A stretch of 64,000 nucleotides of DNA from Myxococcales bacterium (GCA_020633315.1 JACKDV010000004.1:448071-512070); one strand, 5' to 3'; numbered from the stretch's first letter, positions 2,944 to 48,473 are shown. A program made the numbers and translations. The notes: generated by a model from the sequence alone, not told the origin.

Positions 2944-3023
2944 CCGAGCTCCTCGTGCTCGCGGGCGCGGGGCAAGCGTGGCGTCGGGAGGGGCACCACC
3001 GTCCGAGCTCCTCGTGCTCGCGG
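2944..3023. repeat. Two copies of a 21-bp element CCGAGCTCCTCGTGCTCGCGG, each containing the hairpin CGAGC-N7-GCTCG, 38 nt apart
   Basis: Direct repeat between the convergent genes 2562..2942 and 3110..3499. Confidence 0.7.
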
Positions 3024-3109
3024 CGCGGGTCCTGGTCTGAGGCACGGCGCGAGGTCGAGGAGAGCCATCGCGTGCGAGCACGCGGAGGGCCCGGCCGGGG
3101 CTGGGCTGT

Positions 3110-3499
3110 CTATCCGCCTTCGCTCATGCGGGCGCGCACGGCCTCGGCGATCGCCGCCGAGAGGTCGTCGATGCTGCGGCGGCTGGGCTCCACGTCTGCC
3201 ACCAACCCGCCGACCACCGCGTGATCGTCCTCGGTGTCGACCCGCTCGGTCACCATCGCTCGACCGTCCGTGGTCCCGAGGATCACGGCGAGGCGTACCG
3301 ACGAGCCATTGGTGAAGCCACGCACTCGCCAGGCGATCATCGAGGCCTCGACCGGCTCGGCGCGGAACACCTCGAGCACCGCGCCGCCCTCCAGCGCCAC
3401 GCGTACCGTGGGGATCGTGGGCTCGTCGGGATCGAGCCCCGCCGCCAGGGCCTCGAGGGCCGGCCATAGCCGAGCGGCCGCGTCCTCCGCCTTCGTCAC
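3110..3499 (-). CDS. Hypothetical protein (129 aa)
   Basis: Balanced composition with no low-complexity stretch. It sits immediately downstream of the LuxR-HTH fragment on the same strand. No recognisable domain. Confidence 0.55.
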   Translation of the reverse strand: MTKAEDAAARLWPALEALAAGLDPDEPTIPTVRVALEGGAVLEVFRAEPVEASMIAWRVRGFTNGSSVRLAVILGTTDGRAMVTERVDTEDDHAVVGGLVADVEPSRRSIDDLSAAIAEAVRARMSEGG

Positions 3500-3541
3500 G
3501 ATCGGAGGATTTCATTGGCCGAGCACGGGTGCAACGACTGG

Positions 3542-3718
3542 TCATTCGCGACGCTGGTCATTCGTCGAGGGGTGGAGCACGGCCAGGCGTGCCTCGAGCA
3601 GATGGAAGGCGCTGATCCGCGCGGCGACCTGGGCCACCCGGTTGCGGGTCGTGTGGGGAGAGCTGCCGAGAGCCTCTCCGATCTGCGCGTTGGTGTGACC
3701 CAGGGCCACGTGCTCCAC
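3542..3718 (-). CDS. LuxR/GerE-type HTH fragment; either a 58-aa GTG-initiated ORF or a remnant of a larger regulator
   Basis: A frame not listed in the track translates to ...PPRQRRVVEHVALGHTNAQIGEALGSSPHTTRNRVAQVAARISAFHLLEARLAV..., a complete LuxR-type HTH signature. Upstream the frame is closed by TAG with no ATG/GTG before the helix-1 region, so only a GTG at 3716-3718 can start it. Confidence 0.3.
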   Translation of the reverse strand: MEHVALGHTNAQIGEALGSSPHTTRNRVAQVAARISAFHLLEARLAVLHPSTNDQRRE

Positions 3719-3912
3719 GACCCGTCGTTGCCGAGGGGGAGGCGCCCACGGGCCGGCGGGCGAGCGGGAGCGCGGTGGCCTTGTGCCACCGCGACCCTTC
3801 GCCTACGATCGAGAGCACACCCGTGGCAGGGCGATCCGAGAGGGTCGCCCTTTTTCGTGCGCGCGTTCCCGGACTCGGGGGCGCGCGCGTTTCATTGGAG
3901 CGACATCACATC

Positions 3913-4425
3913 ATGGCTCGAGCCCACCTGCTGATCGGCCCCGTGGGGGCCGGCAAGTCCACCCTCGCCCTTCGCCTGTGCCGGGAGCACCAGGCGCTAC
4001 GACTGACCCTCGACGACTGGATGACTCGGCTCTTTCGTCCCGACCGCCCCGACGCCGGGGTGGTGGAGTGGTACGTGGAGCGAGCCGAGCGCTGCCTCGA
4101 GCAGATCTGGCGGGTCGCCCAGGATGCGCTCGCGGCCGGGACCGACGTGGTCCTGGAGATCGGCTTGATCCAGCGGCGCGATCGCGAGGCCTTCTACCGT
4201 CGGGTGGACGAGGCCGGCGTGGCGCTCGTGGTCCACCTCGTCGATGCGCCCCGCGAGCTGCGGCGGGAGCGGGTGGCCCAGCGCAACCTCGAGCGCGGCC
4301 AGACCTTCTCCATGGAGGTGCCGCCTCCGTTCTTCGAGCTGGCCAGCGACCTGTGGGAGCCGCCCGACGAGCTGGAGCAACGAGAGCGGGCCATCCACGT
4401 CTGGTCCGCCCCGGGGGTGCCCTGA
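3913..4425 (+). CDS. P-loop NTPase / small-molecule kinase-like protein (AAA_33 / zeta-toxin-like fold)
   Basis: Walker A motif LIGPVGAGKSTLALRL sits directly after an internal ATG at 3913. The 46 upstream codons in the track ORF are junk. 170 aa. Confidence 0.75.
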   Translation: MARAHLLIGPVGAGKSTLALRLCREHQALRLTLDDWMTRLFRPDRPDAGVVEWYVERAERCLEQIWRVAQDALAAGTDVVLEIGLIQRRDREAFYRRVDEAGVALVVHLVDAPRELRRERVAQRNLERGQTFSMEVPPPFFELASDLWEPPDELEQRERAIHVWSAPGVP

Positions 4426-4531
4426 GGGCGCACCGCGGGGCGCGAGCGCGGCTCGGCGGGTGGCCGCTCGGGATCGAGCCCGCAGCGGCGTCGCGCCGGG
4501 CTATCATCGTCGCATCGATCGCCTCGAGAAG

Positions 4532-6061
4532 ATGCGCCGCCGCCTGCCGGTGGTGGACCGGCTGCCCGCCCCCGGGTCGCGGCGGGCCCTGCCGCTTGCG
4601 AAGGGCGAGGCCCCCACCCCCACCTTCGCGGTGTGGGAGCTGACGCTGGCCTGCGACCATCGCTGCCGTCACTGCGGCCCGCGGGCGGCCAAGGCCCGGC
4701 CCGACGAGCTGAGCACCGACGAGTGCCTGCGCCTGGTCGACGAGCTGGCCGAGCTCGGCGTGGGCGAGGTGGTGCTGATCGGCGGCGAGGCCTACCTGCG
4801 CGACGACTTCCTGCTGGTGATCCGGGCCTGCCGCGAGCGCGGCATGTCGGTCACCATGACCACCGGCGGGTGGGGGCTGACCCCCGAGCGCTGCGCCGCC
4901 GCCAAGCAGGCCGGGCTGCGCGGGGTGTCGGTGTCGATCGACGGGCTGCGGGAGAGCCACGACCACGTGCGCCGCCCCGGGAGCTGGGACCGGGCCTTCG
5001 CCGCGCTGCGCCACGCCAAGGCGGCCGGGCTGCCCATCGCCTCCAACACGCAGATCAACCAGCGCTCGGCGGGCGAGCTGCTGCCGCTGCTCGAGCTGCT
5101 GGGCGCCGAGGGGATCCACGGCTGGCAGATCCAGCTCACCATGGCGCACGGCAACGCGGCCGATCACCCCGAGCTGCTGGTGCAGCCCCACATGCTGATC
5201 GAGCTGTACCAGAGCATCGACACGGTGATCGATCGCTGCGACGAGCTGGGGATCCGGCTGTGGCCGGCGAACAACATCGGCTACTTCGGCCCCATCGAGC
5301 AGCGCCTGCGCTTCCACCAGACGGGGGGGCGCCACTTCAGCGGCTGCAAGGCGGGGCTCCGCACCGTCGGCATCGAGAGCAACGGGACGATCAAGAGCTG
5401 CCCCAGCCTCGGCGGCCCGGTCAACGACGGGGGCTCGTGGCGCGAGCACGGGCTGCGAGCGCTGTGGGAGCGGGCGCCCGAGATCGGATACACGCGCCAC
5501 CGGACGCTCGACGATCTGTGGGGGTACTGCCGCGAGTGCTACTACGCGAGCACCTGCATGGCCGGCTGCACCGCCACCTCCGAGCCTCTGCTGGGTCGAC
5601 CGGGGAACAACCCCTACTGCCTGCACCGGGCGCTGGAGATGGATCGCATGGGGCTGCGCGAGCGCATCGAGGCGGTGCGGGGGGCCGAGGACGTGCCCTT
5701 CGGCGCCGGGCTGTTCCGGCTGATCCGCGAGCCCAAGGATCCGGCCGCGCGCGGCGAGCCGGGGGCGTGCCAGGTGGAGGAGCCGCGGGTGGATCGACGG
5801 CAGGAGCCCCATGGCCCGGGGCGGCCGGCCGCTGAGCGAAGGAGCCACCGAGGGGAGGAGGACGGCTACGCCGTGGTCGTCCCGCCCGAGCCCGAGCCGC
5901 TGCCCGTGTCCCCGCTGCCGCTCCCCGAGCCCTCCGAGCCCGAGCCGCCGTCGCTGGACTCCGAGCCCGAGCCCCCCGAGGACGAGCCCTCGGCCGCGGT
6001 GGTCGAGTCGTCGTCGGGCGGCGTGGTGTCGAGCGAGGTGTCGACCTCGGGCCCGGCGTAG
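4532..6061 (+). CDS. Radical SAM enzyme with SPASM domain (peptide/protein-modifying maturase class)
   Basis: CxxxCxxC cluster (LTLACDHRCRHCGP) and a C-terminal SPASM motif CRECYYASTCMAGC (C-x2-C-x5-C-x3-C). The internal ATG at 4532 follows 96 junk codons. The last ~110 aa are a P/E/S-rich tail running to the stop at 6061. Confidence 0.8.
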   Translation: MRRRLPVVDRLPAPGSRRALPLAKGEAPTPTFAVWELTLACDHRCRHCGPRAAKARPDELSTDECLRLVDELAELGVGEVVLIGGEAYLRDDFLLVIRACRERGMSVTMTTGGWGLTPERCAAAKQAGLRGVSVSIDGLRESHDHVRRPGSWDRAFAALRHAKAAGLPIASNTQINQRSAGELLPLLELLGAEGIHGWQIQLTMAHGNAADHPELLVQPHMLIELYQSIDTVIDRCDELGIRLWPANNIGYFGPIEQRLRFHQTGGRHFSGCKAGLRTVGIESNGTIKSCPSLGGPVNDGGSWREHGLRALWERAPEIGYTRHRTLDDLWGYCRECYYASTCMAGCTATSEPLLGRPGNNPYCLHRALEMDRMGLRERIEAVRGAEDVPFGAGLFRLIREPKDPAARGEPGACQVEEPRVDRRQEPHGPGRPAAERRSHRGEEDGYAVVVPPEPEPLPVSPLPLPEPSEPEPPSLDSEPEPPEDEPSAAVVESSSGGVVSSEVSTSGPA

Positions 6062-32743: not shown

Positions 32744-32968
32744 GGAGGGCCTCGAGGGGAAGGGGGAAATCGGAGGCAGGCGAGGAGACCGCTCCTCGTC
32801 TTCGGCCCCGCCATGGCCGGCTCGCCGAGAATCCGTCAGAAAAAAGCATCGCCCCGCCCGAGGCCCCCGCCGACCCACGCGGGCGCATCACCGCGCCTCG
32901 CCGGCCCTCGAGCGGATCGAGCCCGTGACCATCGGCGCCCCGGCGCGTATGAAAGGAAGGGATCGGCC

Positions 32969-33495: not shown

Positions 33496-34929
33496 ATGCT
33501 CCGCCGCCTTCGCCTGCCCTTCGTGATCGCCTGCACCCTCGCTTGGCCCGCGGCAGCGCTCGCCGCCACGCCGAGCGCCGAGGCGCAGTCGAGCGACGAC
33601 GAGCCGGTGGGGGTCTACGGCGGCGACTTCGTGCAGGACTGCGGCTGGCCCACCACCGTCTCGATGGAGGGCCAGTGCACCGGCACCCTCATCCACCCGC
33701 AGGTGGTGGTCTACGCGGCGCACTGCGGCAGCAACTACGGCAGCGTGCAGCTCGGCGAGGAGATCGCCCCGGGCCACGCCCGCTCGGTGAGCACCGAGTA
33801 CTGCCGCACCTACGGCAACTTCGACGCGGGGGCCGGCACCGACTGGGCCTTCTGCGTGCTGTCCGAGCCGCAGGACGACATCGCCATCGTGCCGCCGCTG
33901 ATGGGCTGCGAGCTCGACGTGCTGGAGCCCGGCACCCCGGTGACCATCGTGGGCTTCGGCCAGGCCGAGACCGGCTACGGCAGCAAGAAGGAGGTCACCA
34001 CCGAGTTCGGCTTCTTCGCGGGCGACGAGGTGTTCCTGGGCGGCGGCGGCGAGGATGCCTGCAGCGGCGACTCGGGCGGTCCCGTGTTCGTGCAGATGCC
34101 CGACTCGGGGAGCTGGCGGGCCTTCGGCATCACCTCCTACGGCTCGGCCAACTGCCTTCAGGGCGGCTACTACTCGCTCATCCCGCTGGGCATGCCCTGG
34201 TTCGAGTCCGAGACCGGCTTCGACCTCACGCCCTGCCACGACGCCGACGGCAACTGGACCCCGGGCCCGCGCTGCCAGGACTTCCCCCTCATGCCCATGA
34301 GCGCGGGCGGAGCCTGGGCCGACGGCTGCGATCCGGGCGACCTCGGGGGCGCCGAGTCCACCTGCGGCGCGGCCTTCGATCCCTCCGACGACACCGTCGC
34401 GCCGATCGTCGCGTTCGTGCAGCCCCCCAACGAGAGCCGCTTCGAGAGCGACCCCGAGACCGGCACGGCCAACGTCGCCATCGAGATCAGTGCACAGGAC
34501 GAGGGCTACGGCGTGGACACGGTGGAGCTGCTGATCAACGGCAGCAGCATCCCCGGCGGCGTGCTCGAGGTGGAGCCCTACACCTTCAACCTGCTGCTGC
34601 CGCCCGGCAGCTACGAGCTCGATGCCATCGCCACCGACTTCTCGGGCAACCAGGGCGAGGCCGAGCCCCTCTACGTGGGCGTGGACATGGATCCGGTGGT
34701 GCCCGATCCCGAGCCGGCCGACGACAGCGGCGGCACCGGGCTCGACACCGGCAGCGAGACCGACGGCCTGCCCGGCGGCACCGGGAACGACGGAAGCGGC
34801 AGCGGCAACCCCGGGGCCGACGGCGACGCGAGCGGCTGCGGCTGCCGCAGCTCCGGCTCGAGCCCGGGCGCGCTGGTCCTCGGCCTGCTGGGCCTGATGC
34901 TGGTCCGCCGCCGTTCGTCGGCGGCCTAG
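33496..34929 (+). CDS. Trypsin-like (S1) serine protease with MYXO-CTERM sorting tail
   Basis: Signal peptide, TGTLIHPQVVVYAAHC (His) and GDSGGPVF (Ser). The C-terminus GCGCRSSGSS-PGALVLGLLGLMLVRRR is MYXO-CTERM. Confidence 0.9.
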   Translation: MLRRLRLPFVIACTLAWPAAALAATPSAEAQSSDDEPVGVYGGDFVQDCGWPTTVSMEGQCTGTLIHPQVVVYAAHCGSNYGSVQLGEEIAPGHARSVSTEYCRTYGNFDAGAGTDWAFCVLSEPQDDIAIVPPLMGCELDVLEPGTPVTIVGFGQAETGYGSKKEVTTEFGFFAGDEVFLGGGGEDACSGDSGGPVFVQMPDSGSWRAFGITSYGSANCLQGGYYSLIPLGMPWFESETGFDLTPCHDADGNWTPGPRCQDFPLMPMSAGGAWADGCDPGDLGGAESTCGAAFDPSDDTVAPIVAFVQPPNESRFESDPETGTANVAIEISAQDEGYGVDTVELLINGSSIPGGVLEVEPYTFNLLLPPGSYELDAIATDFSGNQGEAEPLYVGVDMDPVVPDPEPADDSGGTGLDTGSETDGLPGGTGNDGSGSGNPGADGDASGCGCRSSGSSPGALVLGLLGLMLVRRRSSAA

Positions 34930-34985
34930 TCCTGGGCCTGCTGGGCCTGGTGCTGGTCCGCCGCCGTCCTTCGGCCGTGGTCTAG
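34873..34985 (+). repeat. Tandem ~57-bp duplication of the MYXO-CTERM tail coding segment
   Basis: The second copy begins at the protease stop codon and encodes LVLGLLGLVLVRRRPSAVV* in another frame. The first copy encodes LVLGLLGLMLVRRRSSAA*. Confidence 0.75.
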
Positions 34986-36283
34986 CCCTCGGCCTGCTTG
35001 GCCTGCCAGCGCCGCGCCGCCGGCGAGTCGAGCGGATCGCCGCCGGTGGTGAACAGGGTGATGCCCTGCGCGCTCGCGGGCGGCCCCGCGTGCACGATGT
35101 GGTGCACGCTGCCCACGAAGGGCTGGGCCAGCCACTGCTGGAAGTTGGCGATCGGCTGCACGTTGTAGCGGTAGTCGTCGTTGGCCGCCTTGGCGGTGAT
35201 GGTGCGCAGCAGCACCGCGTCGTCGGCCCACGGCAGCGAGGCCACGCTCTGCCGGAACACGGGAGAGTAGCGCTTCCAGTACTGCTCGGCGTTGCTGAGG
35301 TAGAGCACCCGCAGCGGGACCCCCAGGGCCTGGGCCGCCTCGCCGATGCCGGCGAGCCCCTCGCGCTCGAGCAGGTTCACCCGCAGGGCCCGGATGCGCC
35401 GCTGCTCGAGCATCAGGCGCACGTAGTCGTAGGTCTCCTGGTCGTCGAAGACCGTGGGCACGCCCACCTTGGCCATGCGACGCCGGACCGCCCGCAGGCG
35501 ACCGTGGATCCGCCCGCTGCCGCTGCGGTACCAGTAGCGGAGCTCGCGAGCGCGCGGCTCGGGGTGGGCGGCGGCGATGATCTCGAGCGCCCGGGGTCGC
35601 CCGCCCTCCGACCACAGCGCGACCATCTCCTGGGGCGTGTCGGCGTGGAGGAAGAACAGGCGATACAGCTCGTGGATCTCCTGCACCGCGGGGTCGTAGT
35701 CCACCAGCCACGCGAGCTCCGAGCGGGCCCAGCCCACGAACAGGTAGCCCTGGTCGGTGCCCACGCCCAGGTACCCGCCGCCCACGCCCGCAAGCGCGGA
35801 GTGGAACGCATCGAGGGCCTTCTCGTTGCTCGACAGGTAGTGCTTGTTCTCCTGCGAGGGCGCCACGCCGCCGCGGTGCACCGGCACCGGATCCTCGGCC
35901 GTGCCGAACAGGATCGCAACCTGCTCCTCGTCGAGCGGGACCAGGCCGCCCGCGCTCGGGGTCGCGGCCGCGACCTCGGCCGACGGCTCCACCCTCGCCG
36001 ACGGCTCCACCCTCGCCGACGGCTCCACCCTCGCCGACGGCTCCACCCTCGCCGACGGCTCCACCCTCGCCGGCGGCTCGGCGGGAGCCTCCACCGCGGC
36101 TCGCGGCTCGCGGGGGCTCGGGGCCTCGGCGACGGCGGCAGCCTCCTCGGGCCGTGGCCCCCCGTCGGGGCTCGTCGCTCCCCCCTGCGCGGTGCAGGCG
36201 AGCAGGCCGAGGACGACCAGGGCGGAGGCGAGGGGGCGGTGGCTCACCCGAGATCTCATGCGCCCACCCGTCGCGAAGCGCAA
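34982..36283 (-). CDS. Hypothetical lipoprotein with (ARVEPS)x5 repeat
   Basis: ASALVVLGLLACTAQGG lipobox and a Pro/Ala/Glu linker containing 5 tandem 6-aa repeats. The conserved-looking C-terminal domain has YLGVGTDQGYLFVGWARSELAWLVDYDP. Confidence 0.7.
   Translation of the reverse strand: MRFATGGRMRSRVSHRPLASALVVLGLLACTAQGGATSPDGGPRPEEAAAVAEAPSPREPRAAVEAPAEPPARVEPSARVEPSARVEPSARVEPSARVEPSAEVAAATPSAGGLVPLDEEQVAILFGTAEDPVPVHRGGVAPSQENKHYLSSNEKALDAFHSALAGVGGGYLGVGTDQGYLFVGWARSELAWLVDYDPAVQEIHELYRLFFLHADTPQEMVALWSEGGRPRALEIIAAAHPEPRARELRYWYRSGSGRIHGRLRAVRRRMAKVGVPTVFDDQETYDYVRLMLEQRRIRALRVNLLEREGLAGIGEAAQALGVPLRVLYLSNAEQYWKRYSPVFRQSVASLPWADDAVLLRTITAKAANDDYRYNVQPIANFQQWLAQPFVGSVHHIVHAGPPASAQGITLFTTGGDPLDSPAARRWQAKQAEG
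35982..36071. repeat. 18-bp x5 in-frame tandem repeat (GACGGCTCCACCCTCGCC) inside lipoprotein gene
   Basis: Five perfect copies plus a degenerate sixth. They encode (ARVEPS)5 on the minus strand. Confidence 0.85.
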
Positions 36284-36354
36284 GCTTCCGGCGAACGGAG
36301 CAGGCCCGGGTGGTATGGTGCATCACCCCGCGCCCGGAGGGACGGGGACCTGCC

Positions 36355-36831
36355 ATGCGGATCGTGTGCATCTCCGACACGCACGGACGCCACGCGCGGC
36401 TGGAGGTCCCGCCCTGCGACCTGCCGATCCATGCCGGCGACGCCACCCGCCGCGGTCGCCTCGAGGAGCTGCGCTCCGCCCTGGCCTGGATGTCCCGCCG
36501 CTTCCGTCGCATGGCCTACAACCGCGAGCGCGGCCCGGAGATCGCCGCACACTGGGCCGCGATCCCCGAGGGCCTCGACCTGCTGCTCACCCACGGCCCC
36601 CCGCGGGGGGTGGGCGACCGGGCGATCCTCGGGGTGAACGCGGGCTGCGACGACCTGCTGGCGCGCGTGCACCTGGTGCGGCCGCGGGTGCACGTGTTCG
36701 GGCACATCCACGAGGCGGCCGGGGAGTACCGCCTGCCCGGCCTGCCCACGCGCTTCTACAACGTGGCGAGCAGCCGCCTGCTGGGCTGGACCCGCGCGCC
36801 GGTGGTGCTCGAGCTGCCGCCCTCGTGCTAG
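36355..36831 (+). CDS. Metallophosphoesterase (calcineurin-like, YfcE/MJ0936-type)
   Basis: Internal ATG after GAGGGA: MRIVCISDTHGRH, IHAGD, LLTHGPP, VFGHIHE. Confidence 0.8.
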   Translation: MRIVCISDTHGRHARLEVPPCDLPIHAGDATRRGRLEELRSALAWMSRRFRRMAYNRERGPEIAAHWAAIPEGLDLLLTHGPPRGVGDRAILGVNAGCDDLLARVHLVRPRVHVFGHIHEAAGEYRLPGLPTRFYNVASSRLLGWTRAPVVLELPPSC

Positions 36832-39550: not shown

Positions 39551-42478
39551 ATGGTGCGGATTCGCAGGTTCGTTGTGAATAGAACGCTTGCCCTCGCTCT
39601 CGTCGCCGTCCTGTGGCCTCTCACCGCGGAGGCGATCGAGGCTCCCACGGGCGCCCTCGCGACCGGCCCCGGTCGCCTCGAGCTGGCCGATGGTCGCGTG
39701 CTCGTGCCCGCCGTCCCGCATCGCTGGCGCGCCAGCGCGGCCGCGCCCTCGCAGGCCCGGGCCTTCGATGCCCTGGTCGCGGAGCTCGGTCCCACCTGGG
39801 CCACCTGGGATCCCACCGGCGAGCACCCCCGCCAGATCCTCACCACCGGGCTCGAGGCTCCGGGCACGGTGGCCCACGCGGCCGAGGCCGAGCGCTTCGC
39901 TCGCGAGCTGCTCGAGCGCCACCTCGAGCTGCTCGCCCCCGGCACCAGCCCCGGCGACTTCGTGGTGATCGCCAACGAGCTGTCGGGGGGCCTGCGCAGC
40001 GTGGGCTTCGCCCAGCGCTCGGGCGGTCGCGAGGTGGTGGGCGGACAGATCGGCATGGTCTTCGCCCACGACCGCCTGGTGATGATCAACAGCCTGGCGC
40101 AGCCGCACGTGCTGGTGCCGACCACTGCCTCGCGGATCTCCGACGCCACCGCGCGCGACCGGGCCCAGCGCTGGATCACCGACGACCTGGCCGCCGCCAC
40201 CCTGCGCACCCGCCCGACCGTCGAGGGCCCGCTGGTGCTGCCAGTGGGCGACGCGAGCGGGCCTCGCTACCGCGAGGTGCTGCGCGCCGAGGTCCGCACC
40301 GAGCAGCCGCTGGGGCGCCTGTGGGTCTACCTCGACGCCGAGACCGGCGAGCCCGTGGCCCGCGAGTCGCGGATGCACTACGCCAGCGGGCAGGTCGTCT
40401 ACGACACGCCGCAGCGCAGCCCCACCCTCGGGCGCATCCTCGTGCCGGCGCCCTTCACCGAGCACGTGGTCGGCGGCTTCGCCCAGGTCAGCGATCCCTC
40501 GGGCTTCGTCACCTTCCCCGGCCCCACCACCAACGTGCAGCCCGGCCTGCACGGCCCCCTCGCGGCGGTCACCGACGAGGCGGGCCCGCTGGCGAGCTCC
40601 TCGCTGTTCCTCCCCGACGGCGGCAGCGCGACCTGGAGCGCCGCCACCAGCGAGCTCGCCGACGCGCAGCTCACCACCTACGCCCACACCCTGGCGGTCA
40701 AGAGCTACGTGCGGGCCTTCGCGTCGGACCTCGCCTGGCTCGACCAGCAGATCAGCACCACCGTCAACATCGACGACGTGTGCAACGCGATGTCGGACGG
40801 CGACTCGCTGTTCTTCCTGCGCTCGAGCCCCGCCTGCGAGAACTCGGGGCGGATGCCCGACGTCGTCTACCACGAGTTCGGCCACTCGGTTCACCATCAG
40901 TCGCTCATCCCCGGCGTGGGCCTGTTCGACGGCGCGCTCTCGGAGGGCATCTCGGACTACCTGAGCGCCACCATCCAGAACGACTCGGGCGTGGGGCGTG
41001 GCTTCTTCTACACCAGCGAGCCGCTGCGCGAGCTCGACCCCGACGGCTTCGAGTGGACCTGGCCGCAGGACAACGGCGAGGTGCACGACGCCGGCCGCAT
41101 CATCGGCGGCACGCTGTGGGACCTCCGCACCCTGCTCATCGCCAAGTACGGCCAGGCCGAGGGCGTGCGCCAGGCCGACACGCTCTACTACCAGGCCACC
41201 CGCCGCGCGGTCGACATGCCCTCGATGTACGGCGCGGCCCTCATCGCCGACGACGACGACGGCGACCTGGGCAACGGCACGCCCAACGTGTGTGAGATCA
41301 ACGCGGCCTTCGGCGCCCACGGCCTGTTCTCCAGCAGCGATCCCGGGGCCGAGCGCATCTACGCCGACGAGCTGCCCGAGGGGCTGCACGTCTACGTGGC
41401 CCTCGACCTGCCCAACTTCGAGGCCTGCCCCCTGGGGGCCTCGGTGCAGATCGAGTGGGGCCCCCGCGACGGCGACGGCACCACCCAGGTCGCCGAGATG
41501 TTCCCCATCGAGGGCGGCTTCCAGAACGTGATCCCGCCGCTGCCCTCCGGGCAGGTGATGCGCTACCGCGTGCACGTGCGCTACGACAACGGGGCCGAGC
41601 GGCAGGTGCCGGCCAACCTCGGCGATCCCTGGCTCGAGCACTGGTTCGGCGAGGTCGAGCCGATCTACTGCACCAGCTTCGCCGACGGCACCAGCGACGG
41701 CTGGAGCGCGCCCGCCCCCTGGGACGTGGACGCCCCGCTGGGCCTGGCCGGCGATCCGGCGGCCACCGCCGGGCCCGATCCCTTCGTGCTAGGCCTCGAT
41801 CTCAACGGCGACGGCTACTACCTGCCCTGGTCCACCGCCACCGCCGAGAGCCCGGAGATCACCATCCCGCGGGCCTACGAGTCGATCCGCCTGCACTACC
41901 AGCGCTGGCTCACCGTGGAGGACGGCTTCTACGACCAGGCCCACATCCTGGTCGACGGCGACGAGGCGTGGAGCAACTACGCCAGCCCCGACGACTTCAA
42001 CGGCGCCACCACCCACCACCGCGACGCCCAGTGGGCGTTCCACGACGTGGACATCACCGAGTGGGCCCTGGACGGCTCGGTGCGCCTGGGCTTCACCCTC
42101 GCCAGCGACGGCGGCCTGGAGATGGGCGGCTGGAACGTCGACGAGCTGTGCGTGGTGGGCTACTCGCCGCTGGGCGAGCCCCCGCCGCCCGGCTGCGGCG
42201 ACGGGGTGGTCGACGCGGGCGAGGAGTGCGACGACGGCAACGTGTTCGACGGCGACGGCTGCAGCTCGCAGTGCCTGATGGAGGGCACGGACGACGGCGA
42301 TCCCTCGAGCTCGGGCGACGACTCCGGGGGAGGCGGGGGCGGCAGCGGGGGCCTGGTGGACGGTCACCTCATCGATCGCGGCTGCGCGTGCCAGGCCGAG
42401 CCGGGCGGCGGCCGCGGGCGCTGGGGCCTCGCCCTGCTGCCGCTGCTGTGGGCGGCGGTGCGTCGGCGCCGACGCTGA
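39551..42478 (+). CDS. Secreted thermolysin-like (M4-type HExxH...E) zinc metalloprotease with Myxococcus cysteine-rich repeat and MYXO-CTERM
   Basis: Signal peptide, VVYHEFGHSVHH plus GALSEGISDY (third zinc ligand, as in thermolysin), CGDGVVDAGEECDDGNVFDGDGCSSQC repeat, and the ending GCACQAEPGGG...LLPLLWAAVRRRRR. Confidence 0.85.
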   Translation: MVRIRRFVVNRTLALALVAVLWPLTAEAIEAPTGALATGPGRLELADGRVLVPAVPHRWRASAAAPSQARAFDALVAELGPTWATWDPTGEHPRQILTTGLEAPGTVAHAAEAERFARELLERHLELLAPGTSPGDFVVIANELSGGLRSVGFAQRSGGREVVGGQIGMVFAHDRLVMINSLAQPHVLVPTTASRISDATARDRAQRWITDDLAAATLRTRPTVEGPLVLPVGDASGPRYREVLRAEVRTEQPLGRLWVYLDAETGEPVARESRMHYASGQVVYDTPQRSPTLGRILVPAPFTEHVVGGFAQVSDPSGFVTFPGPTTNVQPGLHGPLAAVTDEAGPLASSSLFLPDGGSATWSAATSELADAQLTTYAHTLAVKSYVRAFASDLAWLDQQISTTVNIDDVCNAMSDGDSLFFLRSSPACENSGRMPDVVYHEFGHSVHHQSLIPGVGLFDGALSEGISDYLSATIQNDSGVGRGFFYTSEPLRELDPDGFEWTWPQDNGEVHDAGRIIGGTLWDLRTLLIAKYGQAEGVRQADTLYYQATRRAVDMPSMYGAALIADDDDGDLGNGTPNVCEINAAFGAHGLFSSSDPGAERIYADELPEGLHVYVALDLPNFEACPLGASVQIEWGPRDGDGTTQVAEMFPIEGGFQNVIPPLPSGQVMRYRVHVRYDNGAERQVPANLGDPWLEHWFGEVEPIYCTSFADGTSDGWSAPAPWDVDAPLGLAGDPAATAGPDPFVLGLDLNGDGYYLPWSTATAESPEITIPRAYESIRLHYQRWLTVEDGFYDQAHILVDGDEAWSNYASPDDFNGATTHHRDAQWAFHDVDITEWALDGSVRLGFTLASDGGLEMGGWNVDELCVVGYSPLGEPPPPGCGDGVVDAGEECDDGNVFDGDGCSSQCLMEGTDDGDPSSSGDDSGGGGGGSGGLVDGHLIDRGCACQAEPGGGRGRWGLALLPLLWAAVRRRRR

Positions 42479-47021: not shown

Positions 47022-48473
47022 GTGCTCCACCGATCGCTCCCGCCCCTGGCGGCGCTCGCCCTCGCCGCTGCCCTGCCCGCCAAGGCCACCGCCGCCCCCG
47101 TCGAGCTGGTCGAGCTCGGCGAGGACGGCGAGGTCGCCGAGGAGGAGGCTCCCGATCCCGCGCTGCAGCGCCCGTGGATCCGCCGCTACACGCCGCGCCG
47201 CGGCATGTGGGAGACGGGCTTCTTCGGCGGGGTGTGGCTGCCCTCCGACGTCATCGAGCTGCACGACCGCAACCTGCCGCCCATCCGCTATGACCTCGGG
47301 GCCGAGCTCGGCCTGCGCCTGGGCTACTACCCGCTGCGCCACCTGGGGCTCGAGGGCGAGCTGGCCATGATCCCCACGCGGGTGGAGACCGAGCAGCGGG
47401 CGTTCGTCTCCACCGCCCGCGCCGGCGCCGTGGTGCAGCTCGGCCTGTTCCGCCTGGTGCCCTTCGCGGTGATCGGCGGCGGCGTGATCGCGGTGCGCAG
47501 CGAGCCCGACGCGGCCGGCCGCAACGGCGACGAGATGCTCTACGTGGGCGGCGGCCTCAAGTACTTCGTCAACCAGCACATCGTGCTGCGCCTGGAGGGG
47601 CGCGACATGATGTCGCCCAAGGAGGGCCGCACCCCCGCCGCGCCCGCCCACAGCGGCGAGGTGCTGCTGGGCTTCTCGCTCGCCTTCGGCCCCCGCGGCG
47701 CCGACGAGCCCCCGCCGCCGCCCGACAGCGACGGCGACGGCTTCCTCGATCCCGACGACGCCTGCGTCGACGAGGCCGGCATCGCCCCCGACGGCTGCCC
47801 GGCTCGCGACGCGGACGGCGACGGCTTCCTCGACGCCGAGGATGCCTGCGCCGACGAGGCCGGCACGGCTCCCGACGGCTGCCCCGTCCCCGACAGCGAC
47901 GGCGACGGCTTCCTCGATCCCGACGACGCCTGCATCGACGAGGCGGGCGAGGAGCCCGACGGCTGCCCCATCCGCGACGAGGACGGCGACGGCCTGCTCG
48001 CGCCGCAGGACCAGTGCCCCCAGGAGCCCGAGACGGTCAACGGCTTCGACGACGACGACGGCTGCCCCGATGAGCTGCCCGAGGAGGTCAAGAAGTACAC
48101 CGGGGTGATCGAGGGCATCTTCTTCGACACCGGCCGGTCCTCCATCCGCGACGAGTCCTTCCCCACCCTCGACGCGGCGGTGAAGGTGCTCGCCGACTAC
48201 CCCTCGCTGCGGGTGGAGATCAGCGGGCACACCGACGACCGCGGCAAGCGGGACAAGAACCTGGGGCTGTCGCAGGATCGCGCCGACGCGGTCAAGCAGT
48301 ACATGGTCGACAAGGGCATCGACGCGGGGCGCATCACCACCCGCGGGGCCGGTCCCGACGAGCCGATCGGCGACAACAAGACCAAGGCGGGCCGACAGCA
48401 GAACCGACGCATCGAGTTCAAGCTGATCACCGAGCCGGCGAAGGCCACCTTCGTCGCGCCCGAGCCCTCGTGA
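47022..48473 (+). CDS. OmpA-family protein: N-terminal beta-barrel, thrombospondin type-3 (Ca-binding) repeats, C-terminal OmpA peptidoglycan-binding domain
   Basis: GTG start. It has four DSDGDGFLDPDDAC.DEAG..PDGCP repeats. The OmpA-like motif is ISGHTDDRG...NLGLSQDRADAVKQYM. Confidence 0.9.
   Translation: MLHRSLPPLAALALAAALPAKATAAPVELVELGEDGEVAEEEAPDPALQRPWIRRYTPRRGMWETGFFGGVWLPSDVIELHDRNLPPIRYDLGAELGLRLGYYPLRHLGLEGELAMIPTRVETEQRAFVSTARAGAVVQLGLFRLVPFAVIGGGVIAVRSEPDAAGRNGDEMLYVGGGLKYFVNQHIVLRLEGRDMMSPKEGRTPAAPAHSGEVLLGFSLAFGPRGADEPPPPPDSDGDGFLDPDDACVDEAGIAPDGCPARDADGDGFLDAEDACADEAGTAPDGCPVPDSDGDGFLDPDDACIDEAGEEPDGCPIRDEDGDGLLAPQDQCPQEPETVNGFDDDDGCPDELPEEVKKYTGVIEGIFFDTGRSSIRDESFPTLDAAVKVLADYPSLRVEISGHTDDRGKRDKNLGLSQDRADAVKQYMVDKGIDAGRITTRGAGPDEPIGDNKTKAGRQQNRRIEFKLITEPAKATFVAPEPS

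Follow-up and report, generated by a model that had tools for sequence, protein, structure and literature searches.

Tandem duplication of the 3' end of a trypsin-like protease gene at a convergent gene junction in a Myxococcales bacterium

In the stretch of Myxococcales DNA analysed here, the 3' end of a gene encoding a trypsin-like serine protease is followed directly by a second, slightly altered copy of itself in head-to-tail orientation. The stretch (hereafter the window) comprises 64,000 nt of one strand (GCA_020633315.1, JACKDV010000004.1:448071-512070), and all positions are counted from its first letter unless another sequence is named. The duplication is genuine and goes beyond what chance would produce. 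We consider it likely, and hold this reading with good confidence, that it is a fixed tandem duplication of small size, originally about 56 nt and today 53 nt, in which the end of the protease gene was copied and the copy has no function of its own.

The repeat array and the convergent gene behind it

The whole array is about 130 nt long. TRF placed it at 34876-35005 with a period of 53, 2.4 copies, 85% matches and a score of 188, and a second repeat search gave three units at spacings of 53 and 56 nt (Table 1). The local alignment of the last 60 nt of the protease gene with the next 200 nt scored 75, the null being 18.5 +/- 3.1. The first 24 nt of the unit matched three sites only, all of them inside the array, when both strands of the 64 kb (G+C 72.9%) were searched with up to 3 mismatches, and the number of such matches expected by chance was 0.00 (100 shuffles). 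An earlier note, made from the sequence without database searches, had described a tandem duplication at 34873-34985, and the peptides and coordinates that it gave proved to be exact.

In a global alignment the two full copies are identical in 51 of 60 columns and differ by 6 substitutions and one 3-nt indel; the longest stretch that they have in common without a difference measures 17 nt in the window and reaches 33 nt in a closely related metagenome contig (L001, see below), in either case much less than the length of a sequencing read. Copy 1 is translated as LVLGLLGLMLVRRRSSAA followed by the stop, and the conceptual peptide of copy 2 is LVLGLLGLVLVRRRPSAVV, likewise followed by a stop. 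The tetranucleotide CTAG at 34926-34929 is common to both copies, so that copy 2 begins on the protease stop codon; it ends on another CTAG (34982-34985), which is shared with the stop of a gene converging from the opposite strand.

Table 1. Positions of the features discussed, in window numbering
Feature	Position	Strand	Basis or remark
Trypsin-like S1 serine protease gene, 477 aa	33496-34929	+	ORF; homologues with PF00089
Cys signature G447-C448-G449-C450	34834-34845	+	Upstream of the duplicated segment
Repeat copy 1 (57 nt): helix, Arg cluster, stop; translated	34873-34929	+	Frame 0 of the protease ORF
Perfect 7-bp GC hairpin GCCGCCG-TTCGT-CGGCGGC	34907-34925	+	MFE fold; degraded in copy 2
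Repeat copy 2 (60 nt), untranslated	34926-34985	+	Frame +2 relative to the protease gene
Third, partial unit (a')	34982-35005	+	21/24 bases match the start of copy 1
LIC_10091-family / DUF7790 putative lipoprotein gene, 433 aa	34982-36283	-	ORF, NF047518, PF25046

Judged by its profile matches, the convergent gene appears to be a relative of the LIC_10091/DUF7790 family and not an equivalog: it scored 197.5 bits against NF047518 (E = 3e-58), the equivalog cut-off being 350. PF25046 was found in 107/107 of its homologues, some of which are named LIC_10091 family protein. In the N-terminal linker of this gene, behind the lipobox, there is a short repeat at 35974-36079 (an 18-nt unit, 5.8 copies, 97% match) that encodes ARVEPS about 6 times; homologues carry different repeats of the (A/T)KAEP type at this place, which suggests that slippage alters the length of this linker.

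The stop of the convergent gene (CTA on the plus strand, 34982-34984) and the TAG that closes copy 2 (34983-34985) together make one CTAG. Read on the minus strand, the third unit encodes the last residues of the neighbour, ...RRWQAKQAEG and the stop. This C-terminus, DSPAARRWQAKQAEG in the minus-strand reading, aligns residue for residue with that of the orthologue, SSPVGRRWQRRQAEAG, and a C-terminal motif DSP..RRW.(AK/KA)Q.., with RRW.(AK/KA)Q(AE) as its conserved part, recurs in the closest LIC_10091/DUF7790 homologues that we read (RRWQAKHG, GRRWQAKHG.., KRWRKAQAERAAS, SSPVGRRWQRRQAEAG, SAKRWRKAQAERAAS, SAKRWHKAQAEKDAG). Since the motif is conserved in the family, the third unit has been inherited as a part of the neighbour gene and predates the duplication.

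The likeness of this unit to the start of copy 1 is explained by the fact that the antisense of the conserved ...QAKQAEG end reads as Leu and Gly codons. The Leu codons CTG and CTC are the reverse complements of the Gln and Glu codons CAG and GAG, and the Gly codon GGC pairs in the same way with the Ala codon GCC; read in antisense, a Q-A-x-Q-A-E-G string consequently becomes a Leu/Gly run. On the strength of the genetic code we infer that the resemblance would have arisen from codon complementarity in a high-GC genome. At 73% GC such antisense complementarity between Leu/Gly and Gln/Glu/Ala codons can create direct repeats able to seed a duplication.

The sorting signal and its state in relatives

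The protease has homologues in Nannocystaceae and other Myxococcota, which contain PF00089 with or without Big_7; they are named trypsin-like serine protease, and many are labelled by the sources as MYXO-CTERM domain-containing protein. The MYXO-CTERM signal (TIGR03901) consists of a Cys signature with an invariant Cys, a transmembrane helix and an Arg-rich end that is short (PMC11980579). It is processed by the myxosortase MrtX (Guo, Haft & Wall 2025, PMC11980579; Haft 2023, bioRxiv 10.1101/2023.06.07.544157), and cleavage depends on the Cys signature (PMC11980579). The C-terminus of our protease scored 23.5 bits against TIGR03901, above the cut-off of 20, over residues 446-473 of 477. It has the same tripartite architecture, laid out as GCGC-RSSGSSPGA-LVLGLLGLMLV-RRR-SSAA, and G447, C448 and C450 are nearly invariant in an alignment of 121 sequences. 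By these sequence features the protease tail (residues 446-477, copy 1 included) is a MYXO-CTERM signal.

The earlier note spoke of a duplicated MYXO-CTERM tail. This description holds for the helix and the Arg cluster, which make up the whole of the duplicated segment, and does not hold for the Cys signature (G447-C450), which lies outside the repeat. Copy 2 accordingly differs from a MYXO-CTERM signal in having the helix and Arg parts only and in being out of frame; it scored 13.7 bits, below the cut-off of 20, there is no Cys in its conceptual peptide, and no credible independent start for it was found among the ORFs. Judged from these features, copy 2 is a DNA relic of a part of the signal and would be unusable for sorting, in agreement with the view of the earlier note that the second copy, starting at the stop codon in a shifted frame, cannot be used. 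For annotation, 34929 is to be taken as the end of the protease, and the tail-like sequence downstream is neither the frameshifted end of a gene nor a pseudogene.

The window contains one more MYXO-CTERM-like ORF end (...CACQAEPGGGRGRWGLALLPLLWAAVRRRRR and stop, at about 42300-42478 on the plus strand, the stop ending at 42478). No copy of the tail was found past the stop of this second gene, and its end showed no nucleotide similarity to the protease tail, with which it shares no 24-mer.

Below strain level the nearest relatives have 74-78% protein identity, and none were found between 78% and 99.6% amino acid identity. A comparison of orthologous 3' ends, which the earlier note had suggested, could be made with the closest orthologues that keep this neighbour, equally oriented, at two loci (L003, from the Nannocystaceae MAG GCA_040883285, and L004) with 74% amino acid identity. 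Both are single-tailed, and in both the protease TAG and the stop of the neighbour overlap in one CTAG (protease at 3001-4476, DUF7790 gene at 4473-5654, minus strand); measured from one conserved anchor to the next, the window exceeds L003 by about 50 nt. Seven other loci (L002, L005, L006, L009-L012) also have a single tail, with different genes downstream. Our search for a single-copy allele in a close relative found none, the search of genome contigs giving relatives of 69% identity or less only; in metagenome contigs neither a related locus nor an exact match to the neighbour's 3' end turned up, and for the strain variant P0229 there was no contig on record.

No doubled tail occurs in those of the 120 best homologues that reach their C-terminus, each of which has one Cys-helix-Arg tail, and alignment of the tail with the downstream sequence gave no post-stop copy in the nine related loci. 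Recurrent duplication of the tail can be discarded on these grounds together with the lack of a post-stop copy at the second MYXO-CTERM gene of the window. The same observations leave the proposal that such events mediate shuffling of MYXO-CTERM tails without support, and this locus gives no evidence for a general mechanism of sorting-signal shuffling. The related idea of recombination at sorting-signal sequences is not supported either, because the homology flanking the duplicated segment is the antisense of the DUF7790 C-terminus and not a sorting signal.

The gene content of this region varies between lineages (window 34982-36831; L002 2159-2816; L003 4473-7239). In L002 the protease gene is followed directly by a metallophosphoesterase gene. 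The window has a single DUF7790 gene separating the two (the metallophosphoesterase ORF falling within 36154-36831), and L003 has both a DUF7790 gene and a methyltransferase gene there.

Other readings of the second copy

The duplication is present in two further assemblies. An ENA metagenome contig (L001) differs from the window by 4 SNPs and a 4-nt indel in 3870 nt (99.79% identity), and a contig of the Logan assembly of SRR12358676 (L013) is 99.87% identical over 2954 nt, with 4 mismatches. The indel lies at window position 32762, where GCAG is present in L001 and missing in the window, and is a strain-level difference in an intergenic stretch between two genes called in L001. Copy 2 of L013 is identical to that of the window, and this contig spans the entire array and runs on for about 720 nt into the neighbour gene, with unique sequence on both sides.

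The chance that the genome truly has one tail and that an assembler looped through the repeat appears to us close to negligible. One observation could be read in its favour: L001 stops 11 nt into the third unit (L001 3860-3870, corresponding to window 34986-34996), which is a possible sign of a graph tangle or of population heterogeneity; the contig may also end here through low coverage, or because strains or copy numbers are mixed at this site in that sample. Against it, two copies are present in three separately assembled and slightly different sequences, L013 crosses the repeat between unique flanks, and an array of about 130 nt fits within one read or read pair. Moreover, the copies differ by 6 positions and an indel, and the longest exact match between them in the window is 17 bases, so that no k-mer loop of the usual size could form. 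The worry about an assembly artefact that accompanied the earlier claim is thus answered by three concordant assemblies. Just as little can be said for the idea that programmed frameshifting or stop readthrough gives access to copy 2 and provides an alternative C-terminus, which we hold to be scarcely credible. The frame of copy 2 is indeed open through the whole gene (ORF 33543-34985), but at 73% GC alternative frames can be expected to stay open over long distances, no slippery heptamer precedes the stop, and readthrough in frame 0 gives SWACWAWCW..., which is not tail-like. A frameshift past the helix would, furthermore, stack a second helix behind the first, an architecture that does not occur among the C-termini of the listed homologues. 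We have discarded recoding on the sequence evidence, namely the missing slippery site and the product that does not resemble a tail.

Two further readings give the second copy a use or a different ancestry. The spacer may have been kept because it is useful, in that it un-overlaps the two stops and offers a GC-rich stem-loop as a 3' stabiliser or bidirectional insulator; this seems unlikely to us, although the folding of the region gives it some substance. The plus strand at 34860-35010 folds with an MFE of -85.6 kcal/mol (z = -2.7, with 2/200 shuffles as stable), copy 2 forms a long imperfect hairpin with the third unit, the 7-bp hairpin of copy 1 is perfect, and three strain variants are all fixed for the duplication. 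These variants, however, are more than 99.7% identical to one another, so that the fixation is uninformative on selection, and such folding is expected from GGCC/CTGG-, CCTGG-rich repeats. The minus-strand fold is unremarkable (z = -1.4), there is no U-tract, no terminator-like site was found in 34500-35400, the hairpins lacking a T run, and no promoter-like site was seen. Rfam gave no relevant match here (a chance miRNA match elsewhere had E = 0.44), and the orthologue copes with a 4-nt overlap and no spacer at all. Less probable still is that copy 2 or the third unit is the relic of another MYXO-CTERM gene or of older tails. The antisense of an old tail would then have been overprinted by the C-terminus of the neighbour, and recurrent tail turnover or shuffling would be implied. 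What speaks for such an ancestry is the tail-like appearance of the third unit, which in the frame of the repeat reads LALGLLGLPAPRRRRVE, resembling a helix and Arg cluster, and which is 60% identical to the repeat unit across 53 nt. Yet the same bases encode the neighbour's C-terminus, alignable with that of the orthologue and with the family motif, and members of the family with unrelated neighbours carry the RRW..Q..E tail as well; besides, neither in-frame nor post-stop tail copies exist in the 120 homologues and the nine loci, and the other MYXO-CTERM gene of the window contains no 24-mer of the protease tail. The third unit as an overprinted old tail copy was discarded for the first of these reasons, the C-terminal motif being kept across the family. 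A target-site duplication caused by insertion of the DUF7790 gene was likewise rejected, as no further copy of the unit exists elsewhere in the window.

Origin, age and later history of the tandem duplication

Small tandem duplications arising by slipped-strand mispairing or unequal crossing-over between short direct repeats are a general class of bacterial mutation, and replication slippage, which the earlier note also named, or unequal recombination is the best explanation of the tandem duplication described here. Taking the 74%-identical orthologue as a guide, the single-copy state of the L003 type was probably ancestral for this lineage. The ancestral layout can be written as a-X-a', in which the protease and DUF7790 genes would have overlapped by their stops in the palindrome CTAG that opens a'. 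The first bases that code for the helix (a = CTGGTCCTCGGCCTGCTGGGCCTG) would have been similar to the sequence behind the stop (a' = CTAGCCCTCGGCCTGCTTGGCCTG), and slipped-strand mispairing or unequal sister-chromatid exchange between a and a' would have converted a-X-a' to a-X-a*-X-a', where a* is the new junction unit. In the window a' is the sole other near-match to a in 64 kb, and it lies exactly in register. In L003 and L004 a 12-nt exact direct repeat, GCCTCGGCCTGC, is found at the corresponding places, in the helix-coding part and just past the CTAG; the score of this shared core in L003 (24, null 18 +/- 3) is not significant when taken alone.

The junction unit a*, observed as CTAGTCCTGGGCCTGCTGGGCCTG (CTAGTCCTG...), has the A of a' at position 3, the T and G of a at positions 5 and 18, and a private change at position 9. 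It is the chimera that the slippage or exchange model predicts, with CTAG from a' followed by the sequence of a. The switch falls within the first 4-5 bases of a*, and positions 5-24 of the two units, with 18/20 matches, could have served for re-annealing. With CTAG at its start, a* leaves copy 1 with an in-frame TAG and the neighbour with its own stop and C-terminus. Both proteins are unchanged, and a 4-nt overlap has turned into a 52-nt non-coding spacer between the stop codons. With the crossover in the first 4-5 bases, CT(G/A)G microhomology by itself would yield the same product, and the junction does not prove that the longer a/a' similarity took part; nevertheless, a pre-existing a/a' direct repeat as the seed of slippage or unequal crossing-over is plausible and appears to us the most likely origin.

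The locus shares the usual properties of duplications produced by slippage or unequal exchange, namely head-to-tail copies of tens of bases, a bracketing short repeat, a chimeric junction, and a single-copy orthologue in which the short repeats are already in place. It departs from the usual case in two respects. The downstream repeat is the antisense of the conserved C-terminus of another gene, and the event regenerates the shared CTAG, leaving both overlapping convergent genes intact. Convergent stops overlapping in CTAG are shown for this same gene pair by L003 and L004; in the window the stop of the neighbour still shares a CTAG, now with the TAG of copy 2, whereas the functional protease stop has come to lie 56 nt upstream (53 after the indel), which sets the coding regions apart. 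The result is a clean and datable short tandem duplication at a convergent junction, in which both proteins were left untouched because the palindromic CTAG stop was regenerated at the junction. It adds one more case to a familiar class of mutation and matters little in itself.

The two copies differ by about 10-15% and the three strain variants by 0.1-0.2% only, so the duplication predates the strains by a wide margin; from the comparison of sequences it would be younger than the split from L003. After the event the copies would have diverged, and a 3-nt indel would have reduced the unit from about 56 to 53 nt. This is the sole length difference between the copies (RRRSSAA against RRRPSAVV before the stop), and being a multiple of three it leaves the translated copy in frame whichever copy it arose in. 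As a single observation, this fits with selection acting on the translated copy. The duplication itself is probably neutral, an ordinary mutation scar.

In the membrane helix, codon 468 (34897) is ATG (Met) in the window and in L013 and GTG (Val) in L001 and the NCBI variant P0229. At the equivalent position GTG is also present in copy 2 and in L003, and for this reason the Met is probably derived; conversion from copy to copy would be the other explanation.

It is also conceivable that the locus is one example of something wider. The quasi-repetitive coding of Leu/Gly helices (CTG GGC CTG CTG GGC CTG) might make MYXO-CTERM ends slippage hot-spots in high-GC Myxococcota, with the antisense of Gln/Ala/Glu-rich convergent ends among the partners and with the resulting spacers being co-opted as insulating 3' stem-loops. 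We put this forward as a speculation that is quite unlikely to be correct.

Elsewhere in the window, at 47730-48000, there is a further tandem array with an 84-nt unit (3.2 copies, 83% match) that is Asp-rich; its consensus encodes DGDGFLDPDDACVDEAGKAPDGCPVRDA-like units, and these are probably repeats of the calcium-binding type in a surface protein.
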